In this document: piece by piece, positions 1,441 through 55,662 of the stretch
How the letters are laid out: the number at the start of each line of letters is the position of its first letter
Numbering within the stretch: the first letter of the stretch is position 1
From: Burkholderiaceae bacterium
GTDB taxonomy: Bacteria; Pseudomonadota; Gammaproteobacteria; Burkholderiales; Burkholderiaceae_C
Direction: 5' to 3'
DNA: 64,000 nucleotides
NCBI GenBank assembly: GCA_041912595.1
Contig: JAYRMR010000013.1
Location: forward strand, 1-64,000
The notes under the pieces: generated by a model
The model's input: only the letters and a program-made list of their open reading frames with translations
What the model was told of the DNA's origin: nothing
Databases searched by the model: none
Made by a program: the position numbers and the translations under genes

Positions 1441-2658
1441 TCAGCCGAGGCCGAAGGGGTCGTCCAGCGACTTCATCGGCGGCGTGAACCAGCGCGGGCC
1501 GTCGGCGCTCATGAACATGTGGTCCTCGTGCCGCACGCCGAATTCGCCGGGGCAGACGATCATGGGCTCGTTGCTGAAGCACATGCCCACGTCCAGCGGC
1601 GTCAGGTCCCCCTCGACCATGTAGGGCCACTCGTGGATGTCCAGCCCGCAGCCGTGCCCGGTGCGGTGCGGCAAGCCCGGCAGGCGATAGCCCGGGCCCA
1701 GCCCGGCGGCCTCCAGCACGCGGCGCGCGGCGCGGTCCACCTCTTGGCAGGCCCGCCCCAGCTGCGCCGCCTCGAAGGCCGCAGCCTGCGCGGCCTGCTC
1801 CAGGTTCCAGATCTCGCGCTGGCGCGCCGTGGGCGTGCCGAAGACGTAGCTGCGCGTGATGTCCGACATATAGCCCTCCACCAGACAGCCGGTGTCGATC
1901 AGCACCATGTCGCCCTCGCGCAGGGTCTGCGGCTCCTTCACGCCATGCGGGAATGAGCTGGCGACGCCGAAGAGCACGATCTTGAAGTAGGAGCCCGGCG
2001 CGCCGACGCGGCGGTGCGCCTCGTCGAGGAAGGCGGCCACCTCGGTCGTGGTGATGCCCTCGTGCAGGATGCTGGCGGCGGCGCGGTGCACGGCCAGCGT
2101 CATGTCATGGGCGCGCTGCATCAGCGCAAGCTCCGCCGCGGACTTGCGCATGCGGCAGGCCGCCGTCATCGGGCGGGCGTTGATCCACTGCAGCGTCGGC
2201 GCGACCTGGCGAAGGCCATCGGCCACGAAGAAGGGGCAGTCTTCCGACAGCCCCACCGTCGCCCCCGGGCCCACGCCCATCTCGCCCAGGACGCCGGCCA
2301 GCAGCGCATAGGGGCTCTCGTGCTCCTCCCACAGGCGCAGCTCGCCGGGCAGCAGCCAGTAGTCCCGCAGCGTGCCCTCCTCGAAGGCTGGGGCGAGGTA
2401 CTGCAGCGCGCCCTGCGCAGGCACCAGCGCGCCCACGAGGCGCTCGCTGGCCGGCCAGGCGAGGCCCGTGAAATAGCGCAGGTTCGTGCCGGCATGCAGA
2501 TACACGGCCGCCACGCCCGCCTCGCGCATCAGGCCTTGCAGGCGTCGCAGGCGCGTCTCGTACTCACCCACGCCGATGGGCTCGACGCCCGCCGTCATGA
2601 CCTGCAACTCAGCCAGCGCCTCCGCACGGGAGCGCCCGCCCACACCGATTGCCTTCAT
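1441..2658 (-). CDS. M24 family metallopeptidase (Xaa-Pro dipeptidase/creatinase-like)
   Basis: 405 aa with a creatinase N-terminal domain and the pita-bread fold metal ligands (DTGC…, HRTGHGCGLDIHE…, NEPMIV…, HEDHM). Confidence 0.85.
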   Translation of the reverse strand: MKAIGVGGRSRAEALAELQVMTAGVEPIGVGEYETRLRRLQGLMREAGVAAVYLHAGTNLRYFTGLAWPASERLVGALVPAQGALQYLAPAFEEGTLRDYWLLPGELRLWEEHESPYALLAGVLGEMGVGPGATVGLSEDCPFFVADGLRQVAPTLQWINARPMTAACRMRKSAAELALMQRAHDMTLAVHRAAASILHEGITTTEVAAFLDEAHRRVGAPGSYFKIVLFGVASSFPHGVKEPQTLREGDMVLIDTGCLVEGYMSDITRSYVFGTPTARQREIWNLEQAAQAAAFEAAQLGRACQEVDRAARRVLEAAGLGPGYRLPGLPHRTGHGCGLDIHEWPYMVEGDLTPLDVGMCFSNEPMIVCPGEFGVRHEDHMFMSADGPRWFTPPMKSLDDPFGLG

Positions 2659-2677
2659 GATTCGCCTCGCAGTTCTT

Positions 2678-2689
2678 TTGATATATCAA
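2678..2689. promoter_or_regulatory. Perfect 12-bp palindrome TTGATATATCAA in divergent promoter region (peptidase / OmpA-like paralog 1)
   Basis: Seen directly in the sequence, in an AT-richer intergenic stretch 20 bp upstream of the minus-strand start at 2658. Confidence 0.3.
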
Positions 2690-2824
2690 CAGAATACCAC
2701 CGCATTACATGAGCCGATGTCACCGCTGCTTGCAATTTCCCACCGCTCGGGGGATGGGCGCATCCACGCGCGACTCCTATCGTGCGCGGGCGCCAATCGG
2801 GCGTACCTTCCACCAACGATCGAT

Positions 2825-3667
2825 ATGCGTCGAGCCCTGCCCCGCGTTCTGCTGCCCCTGACCCTTGCCCTCAGCGCCCTGTCGAGCCACGCACTCGAGG
2901 TCTCGCCCGTCAAGGGCTACGCCGGCAATGGCGAGAAGACCAAGGCGATGGACGTGGTCAAGGTGTGGGCCGTCTGCGGCACCAGCTACTGCGAGGACAC
3001 TCCGGCCGGCAAGCGCCGGGACATCGAGCTGGTCGGCCGAGTCCGCGAGCAGACGCTCTTCAACCGCGACAAGGCCCTGATGGTGGGGCCGTCCATCGTG
3101 GCGCGGGAGTACGCGGACGTGGCCAAGCGTCAGGGCGGCAAGCTCATCAATCAGCTGGAAGGCTCCAGCGGCCCCTTCATCTACCGCTTCGCGCGTGCGG
3201 ATGGCGGTGCCGACTGGCTGGTGCTCAAGGACAACTTCGAGGGCTACTACACCCTCATCGTGGTCGAGGAAGCCCAGCGCGAGAGCACCGTCACCATCTC
3301 GGCGCAGGACATGTCCAATGCGCTGAAGGCCGAAGGCGACGTGGCCCTGTACATCGAGTTCGAGACCGCCAAGGCCGAGATCCTGCCGGCCGGCCAGGGC
3401 CTGGTGAAGGAGATCGTCACCCTGCTGCGCAACGAGCCGACGCTGAAGGTTTCGATCGAGGGCCACACCGACAACACCGGCAATGCCGCCGAGAATCAGC
3501 GTCTCTCGCAGGCCCGGGCCGAGGCGGTCATGAAGGCCGTGATCGCGCAGGGCATCGATGCCAAGCGGCTGAAGTCCGCCGGCCACGGCGCGACCTACCC
3601 GATCGCGGACAACCGCAAGGAGGCAGGCCGCAGCAAGAACCGCCGCGTTGAGCTGGTCAAGCTGTGA
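2825..3667 (+). CDS. Periplasmic OmpA-family protein, paralog 1 (signal peptide + uncharacterised ~170-aa N-domain + OmpA C-like domain)
   Basis: Signal peptide MRRALPRVLLPLTLALSALSSHA. C-terminus carries the OmpA/MotB peptidoglycan-binding motif IEGHTDNTGNAAENQRLSQARAEAV…NRRVELV. Start chosen at the Met followed by a signal peptide within ORF 2486..3667. Confidence 0.8.
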   Translation: MRRALPRVLLPLTLALSALSSHALEVSPVKGYAGNGEKTKAMDVVKVWAVCGTSYCEDTPAGKRRDIELVGRVREQTLFNRDKALMVGPSIVAREYADVAKRQGGKLINQLEGSSGPFIYRFARADGGADWLVLKDNFEGYYTLIVVEEAQRESTVTISAQDMSNALKAEGDVALYIEFETAKAEILPAGQGLVKEIVTLLRNEPTLKVSIEGHTDNTGNAAENQRLSQARAEAVMKAVIAQGIDAKRLKSAGHGATYPIADNRKEAGRSKNRRVELVKL

Positions 3668-4533
3668 TGCAGGCGCCCCACCAGATGTCACTGCACCGCC
3701 GCTCCCTGCTCGCCCTGCTCGCCAGCGCGGGTCTGCCCGGCTTCGCCCGAGCCGCCGAAAGCGAGATGACCGATCACCCGCTGCTGTCCGGCATGAGCGG
3801 CTTCGCCCTGCGCAGCAAGACGGCGCGGGAGGCAGATACCTTCGTCCTCGAGAAGGTCTGCGGCAAGCTGCCCTCGCAGGCCCTGCCCTGGCTGGTGGAC
3901 GGCAAGGTCACCCGCATGGAATACCGGCCGCAGGGGAAGGGCAGCGGGCCGCTGGCCATCCTGCGCAGCTACCAGCAGGCCATCGCCAAGGCGGGTGGCC
4001 AGCAGCTCAACACCGGCTTCAGCCTCAGCGACGACGGCGTGCAGTACATGCCGCACGTCTTCCGTCTGCAGGTCGACAAGACCCCGGTGGTGGTGGTCCT
4101 CCTCCTCGACACGAGCAACTACCAGCTGACGATCATCGAGCAGCAGCCCTTGGGCGAGCTGGTGACAGCCTCAAAGCTGGCGGCCGACCTGAAGGCCGCG
4201 GGCGTGGCCACGCTGCACATCGAGTTCGAGACCGGCAAGTCCCAGCTGCCCTCCGCCGGGCAGGCGATGGTCAAGGAGATTGCCACGCTGTTGCGCAATG
4301 CGCCGGAGCTTCAGCTGTCCATCGAGGGGCACACCGACCGCGTCGGGCAGGCCGCGGACAACTTGCGACTGTCCCAGGAGCGCGCGGAGGCCGTGATGAA
4401 GGCGGTGGTGGCCCAGGGCATCGAGGCCAAGCGCCTGAAGGCCGTGGGGCACGGCCAGAACGAGCCCGTGGCGGACAACCGCACCGAGGAAGGCCGCGCC
4501 AAGAACCGCCGGGTCGAACTGGTCAAGAGATAA
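3664..4533 (+). CDS. Periplasmic OmpA-family protein, paralog 2
   Basis: Same architecture as paralog 1 (IEGHTDRVGQAADNLRLSQERAEAV…NRRVELVKR). Start overlaps the upstream stop (ATGA). Confidence 0.8.
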   Translation: MMQAPHQMSLHRRSLLALLASAGLPGFARAAESEMTDHPLLSGMSGFALRSKTAREADTFVLEKVCGKLPSQALPWLVDGKVTRMEYRPQGKGSGPLAILRSYQQAIAKAGGQQLNTGFSLSDDGVQYMPHVFRLQVDKTPVVVVLLLDTSNYQLTIIEQQPLGELVTASKLAADLKAAGVATLHIEFETGKSQLPSAGQAMVKEIATLLRNAPELQLSIEGHTDRVGQAADNLRLSQERAEAVMKAVVAQGIEAKRLKAVGHGQNEPVADNRTEEGRAKNRRVELVKR

Positions 4534-4560
4534 GGCCCGGACCGGCGCTCAGGCGGTCAG

Positions 4561-4974
4561 TCAGGGCGCCAGGCGCGCCAGCTCCCGCTCCAGCGCGATG
4601 ACGTCCTGCCGCGCGCGCTGCAGGGCCTCGGCCGCTCCCGGCTCGCGGCCGGCCAGCTGCAGCGCGGCCAGGCGCGCGCGTTCTTGGTCGAGTTCCTGCT
4701 GAAGGATCTGGCGCCGCCCTTCGTCGTTGCTGCGGGACGGTACCGTGCTGACCGTTCGGACCACCCCCGCGGCAGACGCCGTCGCGATCTCGCCGCCGGG
4801 TGCGCGCGCCGCGACCGGGCAGGCCTTGCCGCCCGATCCCAGCCATTCCACGCCACCTTGCCGGCAGGACGCGCCCGTGGCGGCCTGCGCGCGCTCCAGG
4901 ATGACGCCGCCGGCCTGCACGTCCAGCGCGCAGGCCAGCACAGCGAGCCCCGTCAGGAGTCGCCCGCCGCGCAT
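4561..4974 (-). CDS. Hypothetical secreted protein with coiled-coil C-terminus
   Basis: Start taken at MRGGRLLTGLAVLACALDVQA (signal peptide). C-terminus is a heptad-like stretch QQELDQERARLAALQLAG…IALERELARL. Last gene of the divergent minus-strand trio next to the tad locus. Confidence 0.45.
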   Translation of the reverse strand: MRGGRLLTGLAVLACALDVQAGGVILERAQAATGASCRQGGVEWLGSGGKACPVAARAPGGEIATASAAGVVRTVSTVPSRSNDEGRRQILQQELDQERARLAALQLAGREPGAAEALQRARQDVIALERELARLAP

Positions 4975-4984
4975 GCGGTGCTCA

Positions 4985-5356
4985 TCAGCCGCCGCTACTG
5001 CTGCCATTGTTGACAGTCACCCGCGCCAGGCGCCCCATGTCGTCTTCCACGGTCACCACCATGCTGGTCATGCAGATGCCGCCCACGAAGTTGATCTGGA
5101 AGGCGTCACCACTGGCCGGCACCACCGAGCGACTAAAGGACAGGCCCACCGGCAAGGGATTGCTGACCCGGTAGGGCGGCGTGCCGCCAAACACATGCAC
5201 CTGCGGTCCGTTGCCGATATAGCAGCCACCGTCGCCCTTGGAGACGGTCACGGTGCTCATGGACACCTCGATCGAATCGGCCGGGCCGGACTCGTTGCCG
5301 CCACCGCCACAGCCGCTCAGCGCCAGCAGGGCCGCGGCACACCACATCATCTTCAT
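4985..5356 (-). CDS. Small lipoprotein
   Basis: MKMMWCAAALLALSGCGGGG has a lipobox LSGC. 123 aa, Gly/Ser rich. Confidence 0.5.
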   Translation of the reverse strand: MKMMWCAAALLALSGCGGGGNESGPADSIEVSMSTVTVSKGDGGCYIGNGPQVHVFGGTPPYRVSNPLPVGLSFSRSVVPASGDAFQINFVGGICMTSMVVTVEDDMGRLARVTVNNGSSSGG

Positions 5357-5388
5357 CAGGACTCCCTCTTCATTTTTCAAAAACGAAT

Positions 5389-6096
5389 TCACCGCTCGGC
5401 GCGGGTCTGCATCTCCACGATTGCGAAGCTCTCGATGGGCAGACGACCGCGAAGGTAGTAACGGACACATTCATCGGACGCGATCAGGTACTTGGACTCG
5501 AGCACACTCACGTTCCCGAAGGCATCCACACCCGAGTTGCCGCTGCACATGACACGTCGCAGCACACCGGCCATCAGGGGCACCTTGAGTTCATAGCCGT
5601 AGACAACGCGGATCTTCAGGAGGTTGGCATCCCGCAGACGCTGCTGCGAGGAGGCCCCGGGCTTGTCCAGCCGCCACTCCAGGTTGTCATTCGGGATGTA
5701 GGTCTTGCCGGTCGTGGGGTCCTTGACCCCGAAGTCATCGAAGGACTGGGCCGATGGATTCAGGCGTTCCAGCTTCACCGGATGCAGGACCTGATCGAGC
5801 TCCGTGTCCACCTTGGCCTTGGCCAGGCGCACGCTGTCGTTCGTCTCGAAGTTGTTTTGATAGAAGGGGCTGAGCGAGCGCAGCAGGGCGGTCTTCATGA
5901 CCCCTTCGTCCGCGTTGTGCAGGGAGCCCAGGCGCGCGGCCTGGAAGGTCGCGTGGTTGACCTGCAGCTTCGCCATGTAGATGAAGCCGGCCTGCACCAG
6001 GCCCAGCACGAACACGATGGCCACGGGCAGGACGATCACGAACTCGACCAGACCCAGGCCTCTGGGCGACCTGCCATGACGATGCCTGACGCGCAT
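5389..6096 (-). CDS. TadE/TadG-like pseudopilin (Flp pilus assembly)
   Basis: N-terminus MRVRHRHGRSPRGLGLVEFVIVLPVAIVFVLGLVQ matches the TadE-like motif. GGAGGAGG RBS precedes the ATG at 6096. Divergent from flp. Confidence 0.65.
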   Translation of the reverse strand: MRVRHRHGRSPRGLGLVEFVIVLPVAIVFVLGLVQAGFIYMAKLQVNHATFQAARLGSLHNADEGVMKTALLRSLSPFYQNNFETNDSVRLAKAKVDTELDQVLHPVKLERLNPSAQSFDDFGVKDPTTGKTYIPNDNLEWRLDKPGASSQQRLRDANLLKIRVVYGYELKVPLMAGVLRRVMCSGNSGVDAFGNVSVLESKYLIASDECVRYYLRGRLPIESFAIVEMQTRAER

Positions 6097-6474
6097 CTCG
6101 CGCCTCCTCCACTTGAACTCTGTTGATGGGCCCGCCGTACATGGGCGGACCTGCATGAATGCGGGGCGGCGAGCGCCTGTGCAGCCGGGAAGCCCCATGG
6201 AATGGGCCTTGCGGCGGGGCCGGGTCGGGCAGCTTCTCCCCTTTCGGCGGCGCGAGTCTGGCCGGCGTCCGTGACAACGTCAACAAATTCCGTGCATTTT
6301 TAACAATGCAACAGACGCCTTACCTTGACTTACAAACGACCAGCCTTTAGGGGGTGGTGCGCTGCAGCAAACATCGAATAACGTGCCGACCTGTGATGCG
6401 ATGGCCACTGAGTCTCGCGTCCAGACAGGGCCTCAGGAGGAGGCTCGCCATCCACACATCCATGCGAGGAAACC
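6097..6474. promoter_or_regulatory. Divergent promoter/5'-UTR region between tadE/G-like gene and flp pilin
   Basis: A 378-bp noncoding stretch with locally lower GC (TTTTTAACAATGCAACAGACGCCTTACCTTGACTTACAAAC contains a TTGACT -35-like hexamer). Implies a long flp leader. Confidence 0.4.
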
Positions 6475-6771
6475 ATGCTGCAAATGCAACAACGCGCCCT
6501 GAACAAGTCCAAGATCCGCGGTCAGGGCATGACCGAGTACATCATCATCGTGGCGCTGATCGCCATCGCCGCCATCGGCGTCTACAGCCTGTTCGGTGAC
6601 GTGGTGAAGAAGCAGACCGGCGCCATGGCCGCTGGCCTGGCGGGTGACAACGGCAATGCCGTGACCTGGAACGGCAAGGCCAAGGAGAAGACCGAGAACG
6701 AGAAGAAGAAGGTCGAGAACGTGAAGGGCCTGAACGACTTCACGAAGGACAACGACCTGGGTTCGAAGTAA
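6475..6771 (+). CDS. flp: Flp/Fap family type IVc pilin (Flp-1) with extended Lys/Glu-rich C-terminal tail
   Basis: IRGQGMTEYIIIVALIAIAAIGV fits the Flp prepilin motif G/XXXXEY followed by a hydrophobic helix. 98 aa against the typical 50–70. The tail reads KAKEKTENEKKKVENVKGLNDFTKDNDLGSK. Confidence 0.8.
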   Translation: MLQMQQRALNKSKIRGQGMTEYIIIVALIAIAAIGVYSLFGDVVKKQTGAMAAGLAGDNGNAVTWNGKAKEKTENEKKKVENVKGLNDFTKDNDLGSK

Positions 6772-6786
6772 GCACTCTGAGTGCAA

Positions 6787-6835
6787 GGGTGGGGCGCCTG
6801 CGCCTGCACCCTACACTTTGATCCCCACTTTCTTC
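6787..6835 (+). terminator. Putative intrinsic terminator/attenuator downstream of flp
   Basis: GC hairpin GGGTGGGGCGCC-TGCGCC-TGCACCC followed by a T-rich tract (TACACTTTGATCCCCACTTTCTTCT). Sits between flp and the next operon gene. Confidence 0.4.
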
Positions 6836-6845
6836 TACGCACACC

Positions 6846-7694
6846 ATGTCCTCGAGTTCTTCCCGTTTCTTGCTGTCCGCCCTTTGCCTGCTCTCACTGG
6901 CCTCGGCCCATGCGCTGGAGGTGACTCCGCCGCGTGGCTACCAGTTCAGCAAGCCGCCGGAAGTGAAGCAGCACGGGATCTACACGGTCTACATCCGGTG
7001 TGCGTCGAAGTTCTGCGGAAGCATCGCTACTGGCAAGACCGGTGACCTGGAACTGGAGGGCAAGACCTCCCGCTATACGGTCAACGCCATCAGCGACCAG
7101 AACGAGATGGACAGCCGCGCCATCAACAAGGAATACCTGGCGCTGGCCGCGAAAGCGGGTGGTGCACAGGTGGATGAAGGCAATTCGATCGGTCCGAACG
7201 TGTACCGCATCCCTCGTGCCAACGGCAAGGGCGCGGACTGGATCGTGATCGAGCACAACTACGGTCGCCGCTTCGAGATGACCGTCATCGAGGAAGCGGC
7301 CCAGGAACTGACGGCCACGATCACGGCCTCCCAGATGGGCCAGTCGATCGATGCCACCGGCAGCGTCGCGCTCTATATCGAGTTCGACACCGCCAAGGCC
7401 ACGATCAAGCCTGCGGGCGAGGCCACCGTGAAGGAGATCGCCGCGCTGCTCAAGAGCCAGCCGGCGCTGCGCCTCTCGGTGGAAGGCCACACGGACAACG
7501 TCGGCCAGGCCGCCGACAACAAGCGCCTCTCGCAGGCGCGCGCTGAAGCCGTCATGAAGGCCGTGGTCGCCCAGGGCATCGATGCCAAGCGACTCAAGGC
7601 CGTCGGCCAGGGGCAGGAGTACCCCATCGCCGACAACCGGACCGAGGAAGGCCGCGGCAAGAACCGCCGGGTCGAACTCGTCAAGATGAAGTGA
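6846..7694 (+). CDS. Periplasmic OmpA-family protein, paralog 3 (embedded in tad operon)
   Basis: Signal peptide MSSSSSRFLLSALCLLSLASAHA. Same N-domain as paralogs 1 and 2 (ADWLVLKDNFEGYY vs ADWIVIEHNYGRRF). C-terminal OmpA motif VEGHTDNVGQAADNKRLSQARAEAV…NRRVELVK. Confidence 0.85.
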   Translation: MSSSSSRFLLSALCLLSLASAHALEVTPPRGYQFSKPPEVKQHGIYTVYIRCASKFCGSIATGKTGDLELEGKTSRYTVNAISDQNEMDSRAINKEYLALAAKAGGAQVDEGNSIGPNVYRIPRANGKGADWIVIEHNYGRRFEMTVIEEAAQELTATITASQMGQSIDATGSVALYIEFDTAKATIKPAGEATVKEIAALLKSQPALRLSVEGHTDNVGQAADNKRLSQARAEAVMKAVVAQGIDAKRLKAVGQGQEYPIADNRTEEGRGKNRRVELVKMK

Positions 7695-7743
7695 AGCAGG
7701 GGCGGCACGAGCCCGCCCCCTGAACGAGAACGAGGGAGTCGCC

Positions 7744-9270
7744 ATGGTTTGCGAGATGGCCACCGTGCGTGGCCCGGGCAGCGCTTTGCCCAAACACCGC
7801 CGGCCGACCGGCGCCAAGCCCCAGCGGGGCCAGGCCATGATCTGGATGCTGGGCATGCTGGCAGCCAGTGGCGCGGTCATGTTCGCGCTGTTCAACACCT
7901 CGCAGACCACGGTGAGCAAGGAGCGCACCATCAATGCCGCCGATGCCGCGGCATTGGCAGGGGCGACGGCCGAGGCCCGCCTGCTCAACCTGATGGCCTA
8001 CAACAACCGCGCCATCATCGCCAACGAAGCCTTCCTGATCCAGTTGCTCAGCCTGGAGGGCTGGACGCAGTATGTGGGCAAGACCGCGAAGACGTTCGGC
8101 ACGATCCTGCACATCCTGAGCTTGATCCCGCCGATCTCGGCACCCGCCAATGCCGCTGCCACGGCGCTGGACAAGGCAAGCACCGCCGCAGACAAAGCCC
8201 ACGATGCGGTGAGCAGCGGGGCCACGCCCGTCGTCATCACGATGCTCGAGACAGCCAAGAGCGTCGCCAAGTTGTCTCATGGCGCCATCCGTGAAACCGG
8301 CAGCTTCCTGGCTGCCGACGCGGCACGCGCCATCGCCTCCGCCAACCGCACGGACTTCGGCGGACGCCACGACCCGGGCCAGAGCGTTCTGGAGACGCCC
8401 GCGATGATGGGCGTCACGCTGGGCATGAACCTCACGGACTGGCGCAACTTCACCAAGATCTACGAAGGCTCCGAACGCGGCGACGCCAAGCAGGTGCTGC
8501 TGGACTCGCGGGATGCCTTCACCACGAGCCGGCCCGGCCGCTCGTGGCTCAACTTCAAGTTCGATGTCATCCCCCTGGTGCGGCGCGTCGGCCTCGAGAA
8601 GAACGGCGGCTCCCAACTGGTCGGCTTCGACCGCTGGGAGACGCAGGACACCCTGGAGCTGCTGACCTGGACCAAACGGCGCCCGTGGAGCGGCTGGCGA
8701 CTGAATCCCAGCGACGGCCTCCCCCTCGGCTGGGGCCGCGCCACGGCGGATGACACCGAGAACAAGGGCAATGTCTGGTCGCCCTCCCGCCTGGCCCAGC
8801 GTCGGGCGCGCAACGACGGCGACGCGCACGGCGGCTGGTCCGGCGTGCCATCGCTCTACAACGTCGCGGACACCAGCGAGCCGGCCCGCGCTGGCCTGGG
8901 CGTGGACTTCCTCGTGGCCGTCGGACGCCCGCAGGGCAATGACATCACGACTACCTCGCTGAAGATGGGCAGCACGAGCACCAGCGTCCTGGGCGCGACG
9001 GACATGCCGCAGGCTCAGGATGCGGGCCGCCATACGGCATTCGCCAAGGCCCGCGTGAGCTTCGAGCGGCCCCAACGGGGACTTGCCGGTGACACCACCG
9101 CAGCGCCTCTGTGGCGTCGCGACACCGCGAAGGAATATGGCTCGCTCTACAGCCCTTACTGGCAGGCGCGCCTCGCCGACCTGACGGTGGGCGAGAAGAC
9201 GGCCATGCTGGCCGCCGTCGGACTGACGCCGGACTACCTCGTCTACACGCCGGGAGCGCAGTCCAAATGA
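7744..9270 (+). CDS. TadG-like Flp pilus assembly protein
   Basis: N-terminus …KPQRGQAMIWMLGMLAASGAVMFALFNTSQ matches the TadE/G-like N-terminal motif. 508 aa, no obvious vWA MIDAS motif. GAGGGAG RBS. Confidence 0.7.
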   Translation: MVCEMATVRGPGSALPKHRRPTGAKPQRGQAMIWMLGMLAASGAVMFALFNTSQTTVSKERTINAADAAALAGATAEARLLNLMAYNNRAIIANEAFLIQLLSLEGWTQYVGKTAKTFGTILHILSLIPPISAPANAAATALDKASTAADKAHDAVSSGATPVVITMLETAKSVAKLSHGAIRETGSFLAADAARAIASANRTDFGGRHDPGQSVLETPAMMGVTLGMNLTDWRNFTKIYEGSERGDAKQVLLDSRDAFTTSRPGRSWLNFKFDVIPLVRRVGLEKNGGSQLVGFDRWETQDTLELLTWTKRRPWSGWRLNPSDGLPLGWGRATADDTENKGNVWSPSRLAQRRARNDGDAHGGWSGVPSLYNVADTSEPARAGLGVDFLVAVGRPQGNDITTTSLKMGSTSTSVLGATDMPQAQDAGRHTAFAKARVSFERPQRGLAGDTTAAPLWRRDTAKEYGSLYSPYWQARLADLTVGEKTAMLAAVGLTPDYLVYTPGAQSK

Positions 9271-10268
9271 AGGCGTTCAGCCGCGGCACCGCCGCTCCGG
9301 CCGCAAGTCGTGAACTTGACGGCGTGTGCCCCATGAGTCCGCCCCCCCGGCGTAAGCGCTGGCCGTTCCCTGGCAGGTCCTTTGCTGCGGCCGCCCTGAT
9401 GGCCCTGTTGGCCGGCGGCCTGCATGCCGCAGGCCAGAAGGAGGGCCGTGTGCCGGCGGTCCGCGTCGTGACGGCCGGTCACGCGCCCGCGAGCCAGTTG
9501 CGGGATCAGCTCGAGCCCCTGCTCATGCTGTGTCGCAAGCAGCTGAACCTCCCGCCCGAACCCAGCGGCATGCCCAGCGACGCCGCGCTGGCGCGTGTCG
9601 CCAGCATCGAGACCGAGGTGCTGCTCGATGGCCCCCGCTATGCGAAGTACCAGACCACCCGCAATCTCCTGCCGGATGACAAGGACGGCTGCAAGGTGAA
9701 GGTGCTCCGGCAGTTCACGGTGGAGCTCGAGAGCAGTTGCGACCGGCGCTGGTCCGCCACGTCCGGTGGGCCTGGCTTCAAGGCCGCACCCATGAAAAGT
9801 AGCGAGCTCGTCTACACCCAGGACGCTGAGCAAGCCCGATCCTCGCCGTGCCAGGTCCGCGTGGAGCCCACGCCCGATCTGGTCGCCGCCTGGAAGAAGA
9901 CGTCCCGTCAGCCGGCTGGCCTGGGTGCCCAATGCCTGTGGAGCAACGAGCTCGGTCTGCACCTGGGCGGCAGCAAGGCATCGGCCCATCCCGACCCGCT
10001 CAGCGGCAGCTGCTATGCCGCGGACCTGCCGGACTACCCCTTCACCACCTATCAAGGCAACCGGCGCTCCGTGTCCCTGAAGTTCCGCATGGCACGACTG
10101 CCGGGAGACACCTTCCGGCCGCCGGGCATCGTGGCCGGCCTGCTCGACCAGGAACTGAAGGAATTCAGCATGGATGCCGCAATCCCGGAAGGCCGCTTCA
10201 GTCGCGCGCAGGCCGAGGCCTTCCTGAAGCAGCCCGCCATCGTTCCTCTTGCGGAGCCCAGCAAATGA
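9267..10268 (+). CDS. Hypothetical secreted Cys-containing protein (tad operon)
   Basis: ATGA overlap with the tadG stop. Signal-like segment RSFAAAALMALLAGGLHAAG. No recognisable domain. Alternative start at Met 9333. Confidence 0.5.
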   Translation: MKAFSRGTAAPAASRELDGVCPMSPPPRRKRWPFPGRSFAAAALMALLAGGLHAAGQKEGRVPAVRVVTAGHAPASQLRDQLEPLLMLCRKQLNLPPEPSGMPSDAALARVASIETEVLLDGPRYAKYQTTRNLLPDDKDGCKVKVLRQFTVELESSCDRRWSATSGGPGFKAAPMKSSELVYTQDAEQARSSPCQVRVEPTPDLVAAWKKTSRQPAGLGAQCLWSNELGLHLGGSKASAHPDPLSGSCYAADLPDYPFTTYQGNRRSVSLKFRMARLPGDTFRPPGIVAGLLDQELKEFSMDAAIPEGRFSRAQAEAFLKQPAIVPLAEPSK

Positions 10269-11083
10269 AGCACGCCCTGCCTCTCCCGGACGCCTGCACA
10301 CAGCGCACAGCCCCCGCCACGCGTCGTGCGAGGCAGCGTGGCCAGTCCATCTCCGAGTTCCTGGTGTCGCTGATCGCCCTGGTGCCGGTCTTTCTGGCCA
10401 TCACCTACCTGGGCCGCTATGCCGACCTGCACCAGCGGGCCACGCAGGCCAGCCGGTACGCCGCCTTCCAGCGCACCATGCAGCCGAACACCGCCATCCT
10501 GTCCGACGCGGATCTGCAGGACCAGATGCGCGCACGCTTCTTCCTGGCGCCCAAGGCCCTGCACGATGGCCGCATCCAGTCGGACGACTCCGTGGCAGGC
10601 ATCACCGATGCGAAGAAGTCCCCGGCCATCTGGAGCGACCTGAGCGGCAAGGCGCTGCTGGCCAAGCCGGGCGACGTCACCATGACCTGGGACAGCAAGG
10701 CCATGGGCAACAAATCGGTGGTCAGCGGTCTGGACAAGGCCTTCGGCCTCGTGGGCAAGGACTACACGCCGGGGCACCGCGCCATGGTTGAACTGACGCT
10801 GCTGAACCGTCTGGACCAGACGGAAGCCACGCCCAAGGCGCTGAAACTCGCGGCGGCGACGACCGCCCCCGGGGAGTCCCTCGTCGCCAAAGGCGGCGAC
10901 GGGACCGCCGATGCCGCCCGCCGGCTGGTCCCGGCGACCCTCATCCCGTCCGTTGTCGAATCAGTGCTGGGCTTTGTGATCTCGCTGTTCGAGCAGGATT
11001 CGCCGGACATCGGCTGCATCAAGGCAGACACCGTCCCCACGAATCGACTCAAAGGCGCCACACAGCAAGACGTGTGCCGCTGA
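10265..11083 (+). CDS. TadE-like pseudopilin
   Basis: ATGA-coupled start. RGQSISEFLVSLIALVPVFLAITYLG is the TadE-like domain. Confidence 0.7.
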   Translation: MKHALPLPDACTQRTAPATRRARQRGQSISEFLVSLIALVPVFLAITYLGRYADLHQRATQASRYAAFQRTMQPNTAILSDADLQDQMRARFFLAPKALHDGRIQSDDSVAGITDAKKSPAIWSDLSGKALLAKPGDVTMTWDSKAMGNKSVVSGLDKAFGLVGKDYTPGHRAMVELTLLNRLDQTEATPKALKLAAATTAPGESLVAKGGDGTADAARRLVPATLIPSVVESVLGFVISLFEQDSPDIGCIKADTVPTNRLKGATQQDVCR

Positions 11084-11781
11084 TCATGGCCCCCTATCTG
11101 TCTCCTCGGCTGCTGCCGCTCCTGCTGGGCATCGTCTGGGTGTCCGCGCAGGCCACCGACTGGCGATCGCTGGCGCTGCCGGATCGCACCCAGGGCGAAT
11201 GGGTGCTGGGCGAAGCCCGCGTCAACGGCGTCCCGATGCAGACCCAGCGGCTGACGTCACGGCTGACGGTCGAGCAACTGCTCGCGCATTTCGAGGACCA
11301 GTGGAAGCGCTGGGGTTCCGTGCGCCGCGCCACCACCGCGGGCTGGCAGACGCTCAGCGTCAACACGGGTCCGGTGCAACTGACCCTGCAGGCCAAGGCG
11401 GCCCAGGACGGTAGCGAGGGCATCCTGACCCAGGCGGCCTGGCCCGAGCGGCAGCGGGACTTCCTTCCCCCGGAACTCCCTGACCTGCCCCGCACCGACG
11501 CCCAGCAGGTCACCGAGTCCCGCGACGGCCCGCGCCGCAGCCGCCTCGTGCATCTGCTATCCCAGGACAACCTGGAACTCAACCGCCAGCGCTGGCAGGC
11601 CTATGCCCGCCGCAAGGGCTGGGCGCTGACCACCGAGAAGCTGCTCAAGCAGTCCGGGCAGCAGCACTGGCTGGCGAGCTTCACCAGCGGCGGCGCCCTG
11701 ACGCTGGACCTCGTCCTGTCCCAGTCCGACGCCGCTGCCAAAACCAGCATCACCGCCAACTTCCTGGACACCGTGCCATGA
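11074..11781 (+). CDS. Hypothetical secreted protein (tad operon)
   Basis: Signal peptide MPLIMAPYLSPRLLPLLLGIVWVSAQA. 235 aa with no recognisable domain. Overlaps its neighbours. Confidence 0.5.
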   Translation: MPLIMAPYLSPRLLPLLLGIVWVSAQATDWRSLALPDRTQGEWVLGEARVNGVPMQTQRLTSRLTVEQLLAHFEDQWKRWGSVRRATTAGWQTLSVNTGPVQLTLQAKAAQDGSEGILTQAAWPERQRDFLPPELPDLPRTDAQQVTESRDGPRRSRLVHLLSQDNLELNRQRWQAYARRKGWALTTEKLLKQSGQQHWLASFTSGGALTLDLVLSQSDAAAKTSITANFLDTVP

Positions 11782-11960
11782 CACCGATCCACCGCCGCCG
11801 CCAGCGCGGCCAGGCCACCCTCGAATACGCCATCGCCGCCAGCGCGCTGGTCATGGCGCTGTTCGTCGTCGAGTTCAGCGGCAAGACCGCCGCACAGTAC
11901 CTCGCAGAAGCCGTCCGCGTCTTCTACAAGAACCTCAGCTATTTCCTCTCCCTGCCCTGA
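11778..11960 (+). CDS. Second Flp-family pilin/minor pilin (Flp-2), 60 aa
   Basis: RRQRGQATLEYAIAASALVMALFVV carries a G/XXXXEY prepilin motif. ATGA-coupled to the upstream gene and sits immediately before cpaB. Confidence 0.55.
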   Translation: MTPIHRRRQRGQATLEYAIAASALVMALFVVEFSGKTAAQYLAEAVRVFYKNLSYFLSLP

Positions 11961-11962
11961 CC

Positions 11963-12847
11963 ATGGCCCTCTCCCTGAAAAAGATCAACAGCAACTGGCT
12001 GCTCCTCGGCGCCGCGATTCTCCTGGGCGGCGGCGCAGCCTATCTCGGGGGTGCCGCGCTGAAGCAGCGGATGCACGAGCTGGACGAGCAGGCCAATGCG
12101 GGCAAGGACATGGTCTCCGTCGTCGTCGCGCGGCGTGACATGCAGCGCGGCGAACCCGTCGAGCCCGACTCCTTCGCCGTGCGCAAGGTGCCCAGCGAGT
12201 ACCTCAACGCCGACGCGGTGAAGCCCGGCGACTTCGAGCCCTACGTGACGCAGCGCCTGATCGTCGGCCTCAAGCGCGGCGACGTCCTGCTGCCCGTGCA
12301 CACCGAGGGCAACGGGAACAAGGTGTTCTCGTCCACCCTGGGCGTCGGCAAGCGCGCCCTGACCTTCGAGGTGGACACCGTCAACTCCGTCTCCGGGATG
12401 CTGCGCCCGGGCGACCGCATCGACCTGCTCTACACCGCCAAGGGCCTGGACTCGGTCGATGTCACCCAGCCCCTGCTCTCCAACCTGGAGATCCTGGCCA
12501 CCGACCAGAACCAGACCCGCCGTGACGAGAACGGCAAGGAACGCAACTTCTCGACCATCACCATGGAGCTGTCGCCCCAGGACGCCCAGCGCGTGATCGT
12601 CGCCAAGCAGGCTGGCCGCCTGACCGCCCTGCTCCGCCACCCGGACGACAAGGCCGCCAACCCGAGCGGCGCCATGGACCCCACCGTGCTGCTGAGCGGT
12701 CGCGTGCGTCGCGCCAACGGCGAGCGCCAGGGCATCGAGTACCTGGTCGGCGGAGGCGGCGGCCCGGCTGACATCAAGACCCAGCTCAGCCGCCTGGCGC
12801 TGAGCGGCGAGCTCGGCGCTCCCGCCGCGGCCCCTGCCAAGCCCTGA
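11963..12847 (+). CDS. cpaB: Flp pilus assembly protein CpaB/RcpC
   Basis: 294 aa. N-terminal TM helix, then SAF-like β domains (VVVARRDMQRGEPV…, RPGDRIDLLYT). Position matches the canonical tad order. Confidence 0.85.
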   Translation: MALSLKKINSNWLLLGAAILLGGGAAYLGGAALKQRMHELDEQANAGKDMVSVVVARRDMQRGEPVEPDSFAVRKVPSEYLNADAVKPGDFEPYVTQRLIVGLKRGDVLLPVHTEGNGNKVFSSTLGVGKRALTFEVDTVNSVSGMLRPGDRIDLLYTAKGLDSVDVTQPLLSNLEILATDQNQTRRDENGKERNFSTITMELSPQDAQRVIVAKQAGRLTALLRHPDDKAANPSGAMDPTVLLSGRVRRANGERQGIEYLVGGGGGPADIKTQLSRLALSGELGAPAAAPAKP

Positions 12848-12855
12848 TCGCCGCC

Positions 12856-14376
12856 ATGTCCATCGCATTCAATCTCACGTTCCCCATGTCCTCGACTCCT
12901 ACCCTCGGTCTGGCGCGTCCGCTCGTCCTGCTCGCCTGTCTCACGCTCTGCGCCACGGCCCATGCCGACCCGGCCGGCGACACCCCCGCGGCCGGCCCCG
13001 GCGCGGGCCGCGGCGCGGTGAACCCCGCGGCCGTGCAGTCCACGCTGATCGAGACGGCCAAGCCGGCCCGCGGTGCGGCCAAGCCCGCCCCGGGCCCGGT
13101 CGCCATCGAGTCCGGCCCCACCCGGACCCTGGCCGTGGGCGACGTCTCCACGATCAACCTGCCCGGCGTCGTGCGCATCGCCATCGGCAATGGCGGCCTG
13201 CTGAAGGCCACCGTGGTCGATGACCGCGAGATCGTGCTGATCGCCGAACAGTCCGGCCGCACGACCATGCATGTCTGGCTGAAGAACGGTCGGCAGCTGA
13301 GCTACGAGATCGAGGTGCTGGCCTCGCGCCCCAACCGCGTGCTGGACGAACTCCAGGGCCTGTTGAAGGAGACGCCGGGCCTCACTGCCCGCGTGGTGGG
13401 CGAGCGCGTCGTGATCGAGGGCCGCTACCAGGACAGCACCGTCGCCCAGCGCATCAAGCGCCTGGCGAGCAACTTCCCGCAGATCCTCAACCTCGTGCCT
13501 GACCGCCCGGTGGACGCCGACCCCCTGCAGCTCGAACGCATGGTGCAGATCGACCTGCGCGTGATCGAGGTGAAGAAGCGCGCGCTGGACCAGCTGGGCA
13601 TCAAGTGGGCCAGCGGTGCCGCAGGCCCCACCTTCGCCACCAACGCCCTCGTGTACAGCAACACCCCGTGGCGTCCGGAGACGACCAACGGCTACCCGCC
13701 CGTCAACACCAGCAACCCGATCTACAGCTACCTCGGCATGGCGACGCAGATCACCAGTGCCCTGCGCTTCCTCGAGACCCGCGGCGAAGCCTGGACCCTG
13801 GCCGAACCGCGCCTGAGCTGCCGCAGCGGCGGCGAGGCCAACTTCCTGGCCGGTGGCGAGATTCCCATCCCCGTCGGCCAGGGCAATGGCGCGATCGGCG
13901 TGATCTACAAGCAGTACGGCGTGCGCATCGAGTTCAAGCCCCAGGCCGATGGCCACGGCAACATCGACTCCGGTCTGATGGTCGAGGTGAGCGAGCCCGA
14001 CGGCCGCAACTCCAACGCCGGCTTCATCGCCTTCACGACGAACCGCACCGACACGCAGGTCGCCATGAAGGAAGGGGAACCGCTGGTGATCTCGGGCCTG
14101 CTGCGCCAGCGCACCGAGCGCAGCACCGACGCCGTGCCGGGCCTGGGCCGCATCCCCATCATCAGCAATCTGTTCAAGTCGCGCGACCACACGAACGAGC
14201 AGACCGAGCTCATCGTGATCGCCACGCCGCGCATCATCACGCCCGACTCCGCCCTCACCCGCCTGAGCGTCGACAAGGCCGCCAGCCTGGCGGAGCAGGT
14301 CAACGAACGCGTGACGAGCAAGCTCAAGCCCGAGTCCGGCAGCAACGGCGCCGAGTCGGGCCAGGAGGCACGCTGA
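12856..14376 (+). CDS. cpaC: Flp pilus secretin CpaC/RcpA
   Basis: 506 aa. BON-like N-domain, then secretin C-domain (…ISGLLRQRTERSTDAVPGLGRIPIISNLFKSRDHTNEQTELIVIATPRII). Confidence 0.9.
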   Translation: MSIAFNLTFPMSSTPTLGLARPLVLLACLTLCATAHADPAGDTPAAGPGAGRGAVNPAAVQSTLIETAKPARGAAKPAPGPVAIESGPTRTLAVGDVSTINLPGVVRIAIGNGGLLKATVVDDREIVLIAEQSGRTTMHVWLKNGRQLSYEIEVLASRPNRVLDELQGLLKETPGLTARVVGERVVIEGRYQDSTVAQRIKRLASNFPQILNLVPDRPVDADPLQLERMVQIDLRVIEVKKRALDQLGIKWASGAAGPTFATNALVYSNTPWRPETTNGYPPVNTSNPIYSYLGMATQITSALRFLETRGEAWTLAEPRLSCRSGGEANFLAGGEIPIPVGQGNGAIGVIYKQYGVRIEFKPQADGHGNIDSGLMVEVSEPDGRNSNAGFIAFTTNRTDTQVAMKEGEPLVISGLLRQRTERSTDAVPGLGRIPIISNLFKSRDHTNEQTELIVIATPRIITPDSALTRLSVDKAASLAEQVNERVTSKLKPESGSNGAESGQEAR

Positions 14377-16133
14377 TGCTGCACATCCAGATCGAGGGCC
14401 GTGACGGCCTGCAGCAGCTGGCCAGCACCCGCTGCATCGTCGGCAAGGACAGCGAGTGCGACCTCGTGCTGTCCGGCTGGAAGGTCAGCCGGCGGCATGC
14501 CGAGCTGTTCGTGTCGAACGAGCGCGTCTATGTGCGCGACCTGGACTCCAGCTTCGGCACGTGGCTGGGCGAGCAGCGCGTGGGAGACACGATGCCCGTG
14601 CCCACGGGCGCCACGCTGCGCATCGGCGGCCACAGCATCCGCGCGCACTGGGCCCGCCAGGACGCCGAGGCCACGGCCCCCGCGCCCGCGCCCGCGGGCT
14701 CCACGCCTCAGGCCGGCGCCGCGGCGGGCATCGAGCTCCGCCCGCCGAACGCGGCCACCCCGCCTGCAGCCGCACCGGCCGCGGCGTCGCCCGTGATGGC
14801 CCCCGCCACGGCCCCGGTGGCCCCGACCGAGGCCACCGATGTCAGCTTCAAGTACCGCCGCCTGCTGCATGAGCGCCTGCTCGAGTCCTTCGACCTGCGC
14901 CGCACCGACACGCACCGCATGGCGGACGACGAGCTGCAGGAGCTCACCGAGAAGCTGATCTCCGAGCAGATCGACAAGCTGGGCAAGGAGCTGCCCGCCG
15001 GCATCGACAAGCGCGCGCTGCTCGAGCAGGTCCGTGACGAGGCCATCGGCCTGGGCCCGCTGGAGCCGCTGCTGGCGGATCCGTCCATCACCGAAATCAT
15101 GGTGAACAAGGCGGACGAGGTCTTCGTCGAGCAGGGCGGCCAGCTGACGCGCTGGCCCGTGGCCTTCACCAGCGACCGCGCGGTGCAGGGCATCATCGAG
15201 CGCATCGTCGCGCCCATCGGCCGGCGCATCGACGAAAGCTCGCCGATGGTGGACGCCCGCCTGAAGGACGGCTCGCGCGTGAACGCCGTGATCCCGCCGC
15301 TGGCGCTGAAGGGCCCGTCCATCACGATCCGGAAGTTCTCCAAGCGCAAGCTCAACTCCGACGACCTGCTGCGCTTCGGCTCCGCGAGCCCAGCCATGAT
15401 CGAGTTCCTGAAGGTCTGCGTGGAGCACCACCGCAACATGCTGATCTCCGGCGGTACGGGTTCGGGCAAGACGACCTTGCTGAACATCATGTCGAACTTC
15501 ATCCCCGAGGGCGACCGCATCGTCACCATCGAGGATGCGGCCGAGCTGCAGCTGCACCACCCGAACGTGGTCTCGCTGGAAGCCCGCCCGGCCAATATCG
15601 AGGGCAAGGGCCTGGTCGCCATCCGCGACCTCGTGAAGAACTCGCTGCGGATGCGCCCGGACCGCATCGTGGTCGGTGAATGCCGGGGCGGCGAGGCCCT
15701 GGACATGCTGCAGGCCATGAACACGGGCCACGACGGCTCGCTCACCACCGCCCACGCCAACAGCCCGCGCGACATGCTCGCCCGTCTGGAGGTGATGGTG
15801 CTGATGGCCGGCATGGACCTGCCCGTGACGGCCATCCGCGAGCAGATCGCCTCCGCGGTGCAGATCGTCGTGCAGCAGACCCGCTTCGCCTGCGGCACCC
15901 GCAAGGTCACCAGCATCACCGAGGTCACCGGCGTCGAAAGCGGCAAGATCCAGCTGCAGGAGATCTTCGGCTTCGTGCAGACCGGCCGGGACGCCCGCGG
16001 CAAGACGCAGGGCTACTTCACCGGGCGGGGCTTCGTTCCCGAGTTCTATGAGGAGCTGGCGGCCATCGGCATTCCGCTGCGCATGGACATCTTCGACGAG
16101 ACCCCGCCGGAGCAGCGGGGAGCCCGCGCATGA
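14376..16133 (+). CDS. cpaF: CpaF/TadA pilus ATPase with N-terminal FHA domain and Pro/Ala-rich linker
   Basis: Start overlaps the cpaC stop by 1 nt. Residues 1–100 form an FHA domain (GRDGLQ…CDLVL…VSRRHAEL…YVRDLDSSFGTWLGEQRV). The linker is APAPAPAGSTPQAGAAAG…APTEATD. The ATPase has Walker A GGTGSGKTT, Walker B/Asp box and His box. Confidence 0.9.
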   Translation: MLHIQIEGRDGLQQLASTRCIVGKDSECDLVLSGWKVSRRHAELFVSNERVYVRDLDSSFGTWLGEQRVGDTMPVPTGATLRIGGHSIRAHWARQDAEATAPAPAPAGSTPQAGAAAGIELRPPNAATPPAAAPAAASPVMAPATAPVAPTEATDVSFKYRRLLHERLLESFDLRRTDTHRMADDELQELTEKLISEQIDKLGKELPAGIDKRALLEQVRDEAIGLGPLEPLLADPSITEIMVNKADEVFVEQGGQLTRWPVAFTSDRAVQGIIERIVAPIGRRIDESSPMVDARLKDGSRVNAVIPPLALKGPSITIRKFSKRKLNSDDLLRFGSASPAMIEFLKVCVEHHRNMLISGGTGSGKTTLLNIMSNFIPEGDRIVTIEDAAELQLHHPNVVSLEARPANIEGKGLVAIRDLVKNSLRMRPDRIVVGECRGGEALDMLQAMNTGHDGSLTTAHANSPRDMLARLEVMVLMAGMDLPVTAIREQIASAVQIVVQQTRFACGTRKVTSITEVTGVESGKIQLQEIFGFVQTGRDARGKTQGYFTGRGFVPEFYEELAAIGIPLRMDIFDETPPEQRGARA

Positions 16134-17842: not shown

Positions 17843-18199
17843 ATGGGCTGGCCGCAAGCCCGCCTGCATCTGCAGGGCATCGCCACCCATGTGCGGATCG
17901 GCCTCGCGCTGCGCTGGTGGGAGCGCGCCCGCGGCCTGCTGTTCCACGGGCAGCTGCAGGACGCCCCCGCCGGGCTGTGGATCGCGCCGTGCAACAGCGT
18001 GCACATGCTCGGCATGCGCCAGGCGCTGGACATCGTCTACCTCGACCGCGACGGCGTGATCCTCAAGTGCGTGCCGACGCTGCGCCCCTGGCGCCTGAGC
18101 GCCTGCCCGGGCGCGCATGTGGCGCTCGAGCTGCGCACCGGGCTGATCGCGGAGCTCGGCCTCAAGCCGGGCCTGCGGCTCCAGGCGCGCGGCGGCTAG
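17843..18199 (+). CDS. DUF192 domain protein (tad-associated)
   Basis: 118 aa (…WIAPCNSVHMLGMRQALDIVYLDRDGVI…) immediately after tadC. Confidence 0.65.
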   Translation: MGWPQARLHLQGIATHVRIGLALRWWERARGLLFHGQLQDAPAGLWIAPCNSVHMLGMRQALDIVYLDRDGVILKCVPTLRPWRLSACPGAHVALELRTGLIAELGLKPGLRLQARGG

Positions 18200-23120: not shown

Positions 23121-23337
23121 GGATTCCTCCTCTTTCTTTTGCCTGGCGGCAGGCCCTCGGCCCGCGTCGCCAGGGCTTGTTTATCCGCCGGCCGGCATCA
23201 GGAACGCATATGGGCCCAGGCCAGGACACGCCCCCGGAGCGCCCCTCATGGTCCTCCCTATGGACGACTGCCCGCACGCTCACTAAGCTCGGCCCGCAAA
23301 AAACGGGAGGCGGCTCAGGGCCGCGCGAGGAGAACGT

Positions 23338-25947: not shown

Positions 25948-26069
25948 CTCGGCGTATTCCCGAACCGCAAGGGGCGGGGCGCAGCCGGCACCCGGCATCT
26001 CGCCCCAGCGGCGGTGCGCTTCGCCCCGGCCGGACCGTATCGTCTGGCCAGGCCCCTCATCATCCCGGC

Positions 26070-55468: not shown

Positions 55469-55662
55469 GGGGGCGGATGATAAGCAAGCGACGTGGCCGG
55501 CGCCGGCGCGCGCCCGATTGCCCTGCGAAGAATTCCGCGGGACGGCGGGGCGGCCCGGCCGGCCGGCGCGGGCAGGGTCGCTCTTCGCACGGGCTTGTCC
55601 GGGATTCGCACAGATCGGCTGCCGGGCGCGGCGCCCGGAGCGGCCGGCGCTCACACCGGGAT

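Follow-up and report, generated by a model that had tools for sequence, protein, structure and literature searches.

The question of how the cell wall holds Tad pili in place is only now being addressed, through a peptidoglycan-linked density observed in Caulobacter and a function proposed for CpaD. The same question is raised by 64,000 nucleotides of DNA from a Burkholderiaceae bacterium [GenBank assembly GCA_041912595.1, contig JAYRMR010000013.1, positions 1 to 64,000 of the forward strand; this whole stretch, with a GC content of ~69%, is referred to below as the window]. In this window, three paralogous genes, here called p1, p2 and p3, encode exported proteins with a C-terminal OmpA-like domain, and lie in or beside a tad gene cluster. 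Do these proteins belong to the pilus machine, or are they only encoded next to it? The answer that we put forward, and to which we give an even chance of being correct, is that p1-p3 are soluble periplasmic two-domain adaptors that are functionally part of a variant Tad (type IVc) pilus with a long Flp pilin and a TadA ATPase fused to an FHA domain. Probably, they serve this pilus as optional anchors in the cell wall or as optional helpers in its assembly.

Three paralogs with an OmpA-like and a PsbP-like domain

The three open reading frames, p1 (2825..3667), p2 (3664..4533, or from 3667) and p3 (6846..7694), are all found on the forward strand where the initial annotation had placed them, and their products are true paralogs of a common layout, consisting of a signal peptide, an N-terminal domain (N-domain) of ~150 amino acids and a canonical OmpA C-terminal domain (C-domain). 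In p3, the N-domain covers residues ~25-171 and the OmpA domain residues ~173-282. Using a hidden Markov model (HMM) of the N-domain, which p1 matches at E 1e-32, only these three family members were detected in the 64-kb window. The N-domains are 24-35% identical to each other (p3 vs p1, 35%, E 6e-29; p3 vs p2, 27%, E 1e-7; p1 vs p2, E 1e-3) and the C-domains 68-73%. The sequence blocks earlier quoted as common to the family (ADWLVLKDNF/ADWIVIEHNY and TLIVVEEAQRE/MTVIEEAAQE) are indeed present in p1 and p3, but p2 is more divergent and does not contain the ADW block. The combination of diverged N-domains and conserved C-domains suggests, as far as sequence comparison goes, that the proteins address different partners from one common wall anchor. 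We rejected recent gene conversion as the origin of the conserved C-domains, as the fractions of identical codons are equal in the N- and C-domains (~0.6).

The stop codon of p1 (TGA, 3665-3667) overlaps the start codon of p2, be it the ATG at 3667 or the GTG at 3664, and the earlier suggestion of translational coupling between the two genes is therefore plausible. Read by eye, the three signal peptides resemble Sec type I signals with AXA cleavage sites (SHA|LE, AHA|LE and ARA|AE). A lipobox was sought in the same manner and found in none of them, and thus a lipoprotein nature of p1-p3 was rejected. Note also that the Tat-like signal HRRSLL of p2 is not conserved in its relatives P0007 and P0036 (family proteins and gene loci are designated here by P and L numbers, respectively).

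The C-domains match OmpA (Pfam PF00691) with E-values from 9e-23 to 6e-25 (8.9e-23 for p1) and with 81-88 bits, the gathering cut-off being 27.2, and have the beta/alpha fold of this family. The signature GHTD...N..LSxxRA...NRRVE, matching that of solved OmpA-like domains, is intact in all three proteins. Its GHTD...LSxxRA portion, which aligns to OprF, YiaD and OmpA, is invariant in the paralogs and nearly invariant across 57 family members. In the structures of Acinetobacter baumannii OmpA and of Pal, the conserved Asp and Arg of this motif contact the diaminopimelate of peptidoglycan. By all sequence and fold characters considered, p1-p3 belong to the OmpA-like domain family, and the OmpA-like domains of TagL and DotK are among their top structural matches. 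A MotY-like architecture was rejected because the match is restricted to the OmpA domain; an N-terminal domain of the MotY type is not present.

The N-domain had initially been described as novel. Although no direct Pfam or NCBIfam match to it was found in p1-p3 or in 57 relatives, its fold is not new. An AlphaFold2 model of p3 was built from a 57-sequence alignment, as modelling from the single sequence gave a mean predicted local distance difference test (pLDDT) score of 39; the resulting model (pLDDT 89.8) has a Mog1p/PsbP-like N-domain, with an antiparallel sheet and flanking helices that can be superposed on DcrB, PsbP-like and mycobacterial lipoprotein structures. In Foldseek searches with this model, the closest solved structure was PA1624 of Pseudomonas aeruginosa, which aligned over both domains (E 6e-11) and has the same fold and two-domain layout. 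PA1624, the structural type of Pfam DUF4892 (PF16234), combines a Mog1p/PsbP-like N-domain with a degenerate OmpA-like C-domain, its function being unknown (PMC7716261). At the sequence level the relationship is remote. None of p1-p3 or of the 57 aligned members matches DUF4892 (gathering score 28.8 bits) at E <= 0.01, and profile alignment of the family with PA1624 using hhalign was weak (E 7e-4, probability 26%). Two metagenomic proteins, encoded in loci L030 and L032, nevertheless exceed the DUF4892 gathering score, at 31.9 and 32.5 bits, and have E-values of ~2e-20 with the N-domain HMM, thus providing transitive sequence homology between the p1-p3 family and DUF4892. On the basis of the PA1624 fold match and of these bridging proteins, the N-domain is a divergent branch of the DUF4892 superfamily, and p1-p3 are its remote relatives and not HMM-level members. 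Proteins of the Mog1p/PsbP-like fold class generally act as protein-binding modules.

The family is very rare. When the N-domain profile of the three paralogs was run exhaustively with HMMER against 1.84 billion cluster representatives (E <= 1e-3), 90 matches were returned, whereas word-indexed protein searches had returned 4, 1 and 25. Most of the 90 matches are 275-295 amino acids long and have the same layout of N-domain plus OmpA domain, and some, of ~420-440 amino acids, have two N-domains. Tandem double DUF4892-like N-domains preceding a single OmpA domain (~420-495 amino acids) were seen in L030 (2715-4199), L032 (969-2447), P0011-P0013, P0015, P0017 and P0021, the L030 and L032 proteins being Tad-adjacent. 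In a rough neighbour-joining tree, the family falls into three clades. Clade A contains p1 and p3 and has a conserved C-x4-5-C hairpin (C-x4-C in p1), clade B includes p2, which bears the motif DHPLLSGMSGF, and clade C is a larger, "typical" clade with the motif GSKDHPLFSRMPGY.

Linkage of the family to a variant Tad operon

The p3 gene comes second in a packed operon that runs from flp to tadC and in which most neighbouring genes overlap or abut. As initially noted, it lies directly after flp, starting 74 nucleotides past the gene for the 98-amino-acid Flp, and a TadG-like gene comes next. The p1 and p2 genes are outside the flp operon and adjoin an M24 peptidase gene. The alternative against which these positions have to be weighed is that p1-p3 are peptidoglycan-associated proteins of the general cell envelope that, like YiaD, YfiB and Pal, serve in housekeeping or under stress, and are mere neighbours of tad genes; an unrelated duplicated envelope family had been entertained from the outset. 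The placement of p1 and p2 fits such a role, as do the best NCBIfam similarities of the C-domain, which are YiaD, LptF and YfiB, each under its cut-off. The location of p3 within a tightly packed operon speaks against it.

Gene contexts elsewhere bear on the same choice. For clades A and B, six contexts were informative, from genomes with 49-70% GC, and all of them are in or beside a variant Tad operon that encodes long Flp, TadG-like and TadE-like proteins, RcpC, a secretin, FHA-fused TadA and TadB/C. From flp to tadC, loci L012-L014 (P0030, 50-53% GC) match the window in gene order, gene by gene, with identities of 65% for TadA, 48% for RcpC, 44% for the secretin and 41% for p3. The order flp, OmpA protein, TadG is found in L006 (P0010) and in L007/L008 (P0014, 49% GC), and relatives of p3 occupy the same slot after flp in L006, L007, L012 and L022. 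In the clade B loci L018/L019 (P0036), the family gene is instead located on the left flank, convergent with an arm of lipoprotein and TadE1 genes, which corresponds to the position of p2, and no family copy follows flp. In L004 (P0008), the family gene adjoins lipoprotein-like genes and genes resembling m148, the small gene next to p2 in the window. Altogether, linkage across divergent genomes was seen in L006, L007/L008, L012-L014, L018/L019, L004, L005, L022, L030, L032, L037, L044, L056 and L061. Co-occurrence with tad loci elsewhere, which the initial annotation had named among its checks, is therefore found for the two clades that hold p1-p3, and the refuting condition given there, which included its absence, is rejected for them. 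A tblastn search of plasmids gave no match.

The linkage was also approached from the operon side. A metagenome scan with an alignment of the long Flp, which is conserved in L006, L007, L012 and L018, recovered at least 460 relatives, of which the best 80 loci were mapped (L020-L099). This long Flp subtype, with a GQGMTEYIIIVALIA core and a K/N/D-rich C-terminal extension, is widespread, and a TadG-like gene nearly always comes next in the same operon order. A family gene is present in seven of the 80 Flp-anchored loci, and in four of the 22 loci that are at least 8 kb long. Because matches to the N-domain profile are so rare (90 of 1.84 billion), seven occurrences in ~450 kb are far above chance, the expectation being estimated at well below 0.01.

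Comparison of close relatives indicates how the locus changes over short distances. The window comes from a close relative of Roseateles subflavus APW6 (Betaproteobacteria, Burkholderiales, Sphaerotilaceae). The N-domain of p3 is 97% identical to that encoded by a gene on the R. subflavus contig NZ_JASVDS010000001 (L001), and a Burkholderiaceae metagenome-assembled genome (L002) is syntenic with the window throughout. Between the window and R. subflavus, the flanks, flp, p3, rcpC, secretin and tadA are 91-99% identical, whereas across the minor-pilin module (7744-11781 vs 10833-14690) TadG is 60%, the exported protein X 35%, the TadE-like protein TadE2 58% and the exported protein Y 50% identical. 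With L002 this pattern is reversed, as TadG is 94% and p3 78% identical (N-domain, 65%). The locus evolves as a mosaic, and this distribution of identities suggests that both p3 and the minor-pilin module have recombined and diversified. In another close relative, L005 (Logan SRR33468578, 2916-7702), the flanks are 90-98% identical and the tad locus is decayed, with the order p1, truncated flp (74 amino acids), p2-like gene, split TadG fragments, X-like gene, 62-amino-acid TadE2 fragment and DUF192. Here the p2-like gene stands straight after the flp remnant, and the genes from rcpC to tadC are gone with the DUF192 gene retained. This decay may be genuine, through deletion or rearrangement, or may be an artefact of assembly.

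Several observations weigh against a function of p1-p3 in the Tad pilus. In 52 of the 59 loci with at least 1 kb of sequence past flp, the first gene recognised there is TadG-like, and in one (L022) it is a family gene. Most operons of this type have no family gene within +/-6 kb, and their machine therefore does not need the gene in cis. Where it is present, its position varies, with five different positions across the seven loci: after flp in L022, upstream on the same strand in L030 and L032, upstream on the opposite strand in L037 and L044, between TadE2 and Y in L056, and upstream as frameshifted fragments in L061. Moreover, no tad genes lie within 10 kb of two clade C members that are encoded on long contigs (L015, L017). 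When close strains are compared, the p3 N-domain also diverges out of step with TadG, X, Flp and the secretin, so that no co-evolving partner is evident. The structural relative PA1624 is itself without an assigned function and is devoid of peptidoglycan-binding motifs (PMC7716261).

What these observations establish is the status of the family. A core component is expected in most loci of its system, and the family gene is not; carriage by 7 of 80 loci and a variable position identify p1-p3 and their relatives as accessory, not core, Tad components. The role is accessory or modulatory and not essential, since most operons of this type are without a family gene. The idea that p3 takes the place of tadV or rcpC after flp was likewise not borne out, as a family gene is found in only 7 of 80 operons and at five positions, and RcpC is encoded further down the same operon. 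Profile searches of p3 gave no Peptidase_A24 or RcpC match, and OmpA was its sole match. Returning to the general envelope role, the lack of the gene from most Tad operons of this type and the non-Tad contexts of the typical clade C members L015 and L017 are in its favour. Such a role does not readily account for six of six informative clade A/B contexts being Tad-linked in genomes of such different GC content, for the carriage of a member of a very rare family by seven of 80 Tad loci, or for the recurrence of the p2 left-flank position in L018 and L004, and we consider it very improbable.

A different alternative takes the slot after flp as its starting point. The proteins might be periplasmic pilin handlers, whose PsbP-like domain would bind the long C-terminal extension of Flp or a minor pilin, with the OmpA domain holding the complex at the wall; they would then regulate pilin supply, extension/retraction or tip-complex assembly, and not anchor the machine. 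It is true that p3-type genes are most often encountered straight after a long flp (the window, L006, L007, L012, L022 and L005), that the extended C-terminus of this Flp subtype is conserved, and that the family gene of L056 is found among minor-pilin genes. Yet the same long Flp is encoded in at least 52 loci that are without the gene, Flp is 93-99% identical between strains whose p3 N-domains differ by 35%, and a wall-bound chaperone would be topologically awkward for a pilin pool in the inner membrane. We regard pilin handling as unlikely, and retain the adaptor role outlined above as the preferred reading.

The tad locus of the window and a proposed role

The window tad locus consists of a divergent arm and of the main operon. 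On the reverse strand, a three-gene arm converges on p2 and has been retained along with the locus in L006, L018 and L004. It encodes a TadE-like pseudopilin, TadE1 (5389..6096; Pfam TadE, E 5e-11; 62-65% identity in L006 and L018), divergent from flp; a small lipoprotein with the lipobox LSGC (4985..5356; homologs with 40-54% identity in L004, L006 and L018); and m148 (4561..5007), a small exported or coiled-coil protein, with a coiled-coil tail, convergent with p2, which has 39-42% identity by tblastn in L004 and L006 and no Pfam match. A gene resembling that of apolipoprotein N-acyltransferase (Lnt; LNT_N plus CN_hydrolase) is located between the divergent TadE1 gene and flp in L006 (3762-5429), L018 (13646-15223), L035 and L062. 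There is no such gene between TadE1 and flp in the window, where a Lnt-like protein is encoded ~50 kb away (55663-58125, reverse strand).

All genes of the main operon are on the forward strand. It begins with the long Flp-type prepilin of 98 amino acids (6475..6771), which has the processing site RG|QGMTEYIIIVALIA (RG|QGMTEY) and a K/N/D-rich C-terminal extension. After p3 follow the TadG-like gene (7744..9270; Pfam Tad PF13400, E 6e-7), colinear in all related loci; X (9267..10268), whose start overlaps the tadG stop and whose exported product has no Pfam or NCBIfam match; TadE2 (10265..11083), a TadE-like pseudopilin just below the gathering score of Pfam TadE (E 1.8e-4) with colinear homologs; and Y (11086..11781), an exported protein conserved in this operon type and without a Pfam match. 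A second Flp-like prepilin of 60 amino acids (11778..11960; RRQRG|QATLEYAIAASALV), identified by translation and motif scan, is conserved in L012 and L018. The operon thus encodes two Flp-type pilins, neither of which matches Pfam Flp_Fap; the long one has no Pfam match at all. Downstream are found RcpC/CpaB (11963..12847; Pfam RcpC, E 3e-25), an RcpA/CpaC-type secretin (12856..14376; Pfam Secretin, E 6.5e-34, and T2SS-T3SS_pil_N, E 2e-12), the TadA/CpaF ATPase with an N-terminal FHA domain (14376..16133; Pfam T2SSE, E 2.5e-65, and FHA, E 1.7e-15), TadB (16130-16972) and TadC (16976-17842), both recognised by Pfam T2SSF, and a DUF192 (COG1430) protein (17843..18199; E 4e-15), whose gene abuts tadC as the last one of the packed operon.

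The gap between flp and p3 contains a GC-rich hairpin (6779..6820, forward strand), a possible but weak partial terminator or attenuator. The RNA fold of 6765-6850 (-26.9 kcal/mol, z -1.65) makes this hairpin marginal, and it could attenuate read-through from the pilin gene. A terminator scan called no terminator after flp. Within 2400-8000, no sigma-70-like promoter was called, and terminator-like sites were obtained at 4662-4679 (forward strand) and 7539-7523 (reverse strand), a number that does not exceed the shuffled expectation of 3.1.

Downstream of the tad locus, genes on the reverse strand (21522-23120, 23107-25998, 31325-33877, 52391-56308 and 38757-40610) encode an SPFH/Band-7 protein, a 963-amino-acid open reading frame without a Pfam match, two large GGDEF proteins, one with PAS/GAF and one with Reg_prop/Y_Y_Y domains, and an S8 subtilase. 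In L018, a GGDEF gene is found two genes upstream of the p2-like gene. A link between cyclic di-GMP and the pilus locus of the window is possible.

Profile searches of the cluster recognised no homologs of TadV, TadZ/CpaE, TadD, RcpB or CpaD, and a regular-expression search of the 64-kb window, a weak test, found no prepilin-peptidase motif G.GD.K. The absence of a recognisable TadD, RcpB, CpaD or CpaO pilotin/anchor from this operon type lends some weight to a third alternative, according to which p1-p3 are transient secretin-assembly factors, similar to ExeA/GspA or to pilotins, that bind peptidoglycan and help RcpA multimers to assemble through the wall without becoming a stable part of the machine. 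Peptidoglycan-binding assembly factors have a precedent in type II secretion systems (T2SS), and an accessory status would suit a helper that other factors can replace. In turn, no similarity was detected between p1-p3 and either ExeA/GspA or pilotins, the conserved lipoprotein encoded at 4985-5356 is the better candidate pilotin, and it is difficult to see why one secretin would need three diverged copies. A purely transient assembly function therefore appears quite unlikely to us.

In the reading that we prefer, p1-p3 are adaptors between the cell wall and the pilus machine. The OmpA domain would hold the protein on the wall, and the N-domain would bind a periplasmic part of the pilus, for which the N-domains of the secretin, the RcpC ring, a pilin or a minor pilin are candidates. 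In this manner, p1-p3 would anchor or align the machine in peptidoglycan, or would aid secretin assembly through it. By analogy, this logic would resemble that of MotY in the flagellar T-ring, TsaP on PilQ, TagL of the type VI secretion system (T6SS), DotK of the Dot/Icm type IV secretion system (T4SS) and the proposal made for CpaD. Going further, clades A and B may constitute a previously unrecognised module of a widespread Tad subtype, forming a peptidoglycan-anchored periplasmic ring or brace like the MotY T-ring, load-bearing or gating, in which the three Roseateles N-domains would dock on different parts of the machine; this would be the first function for the PA1624/DUF4892 superfamily. 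We consider this extended proposal rather unlikely.

If the adaptor role is correct, Tad machines would have a second, unrelated peptidoglycan-binding accessory, and wall anchoring would have been solved more than once in them. It would also provide a concrete genomic context for the DUF4892/PA1624 superfamily, which has a crystal structure but no function. The operon type concerned is widespread, with at least 460 metagenomic Flp relatives, and unstudied.

Comparison with known systems

The closest parallel within Tad systems is CpaD. Cryo-electron tomography of the Caulobacter Tad machine has revealed a peptidoglycan-linked density, and CpaD, with a predicted OmpA-like fold, has been proposed to tie the secretin to peptidoglycan (PMC13170226). 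The initial annotation had stated that peptidoglycan anchoring is assigned to no classical Tad component, and this does not hold, given the proposal for C. crescentus CpaD (PMC13170226). CpaD and p1-p3 thus share the feature of a Tad-locus component whose OmpA-like fold would link the machine to the wall. They differ in that CpaD is an outer-membrane lipoprotein of 225 amino acids that is needed for piliation and whose gene follows that of the secretin, whereas p1-p3 are without a lipobox, possess a PsbP-like domain and are accessory. In addition, no match to Pilus_CpaD (PF09476) was found in p1-p3, and one of 57 relatives matched weakly (E 0.0064). In the searchable literature, no protein of the OmpA or DUF4892 families was found to be described as part of a Tad system.

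The functional logic proposed for p1-p3 is that of MotY from the Vibrio flagellar T-ring, a soluble periplasmic protein of ~290 amino acids whose N-terminal domain docks on a trans-envelope machine and whose C-terminal OmpA-like domain binds peptidoglycan. Wall-binding modules on envelope-spanning machines are also provided by TsaP (type IVa pili), TagL/TssL (T6SS), DotK (T4SS) and ExeA (T2SS). These act on other machines and through other partner-binding domains, TsaP using LysM and ExeA using PF01471, and we know of none of them in Tad systems. The structural relatives of the N-domain are more distant in function. In PA1624 (PDB 6TD9), the C-domain is degenerate and its motifs are lost, whereas p1-p3 retain the peptidoglycan-binding motifs; PA1624 has no reported Tad link, whereas p1-p3 are encoded in or beside a tad cluster. 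DcrB of Salmonella and E. coli, also Mog1p/PsbP-like, is a single-domain inner-membrane lipoprotein without an OmpA domain and with 8% sequence identity.

As to the operon, the Tad-like Kil system of Myxococcus has an ATPase, KilF, with an N-terminal FHA domain (PMC8460266). It resembles the window locus in this FHA-ATPase and in a reduced gene set without TadD and RcpB, and TadZ was also not found in the window cluster. It differs in that TadG is missing, the secretin is short and has no N0 domain, and no accessory of the OmpA family is reported, whereas the window operon has a TadG-like gene and a secretin with a pilus-N domain. We conclude that p1-p3 are not MotY, CpaD, TadV or RcpC. Accessory proteins that bind peptidoglycan are common in other trans-envelope machines, and the role proposed here would be an optional one; p1-p3 would thus represent a known type of accessory, but one that is new for Tad.

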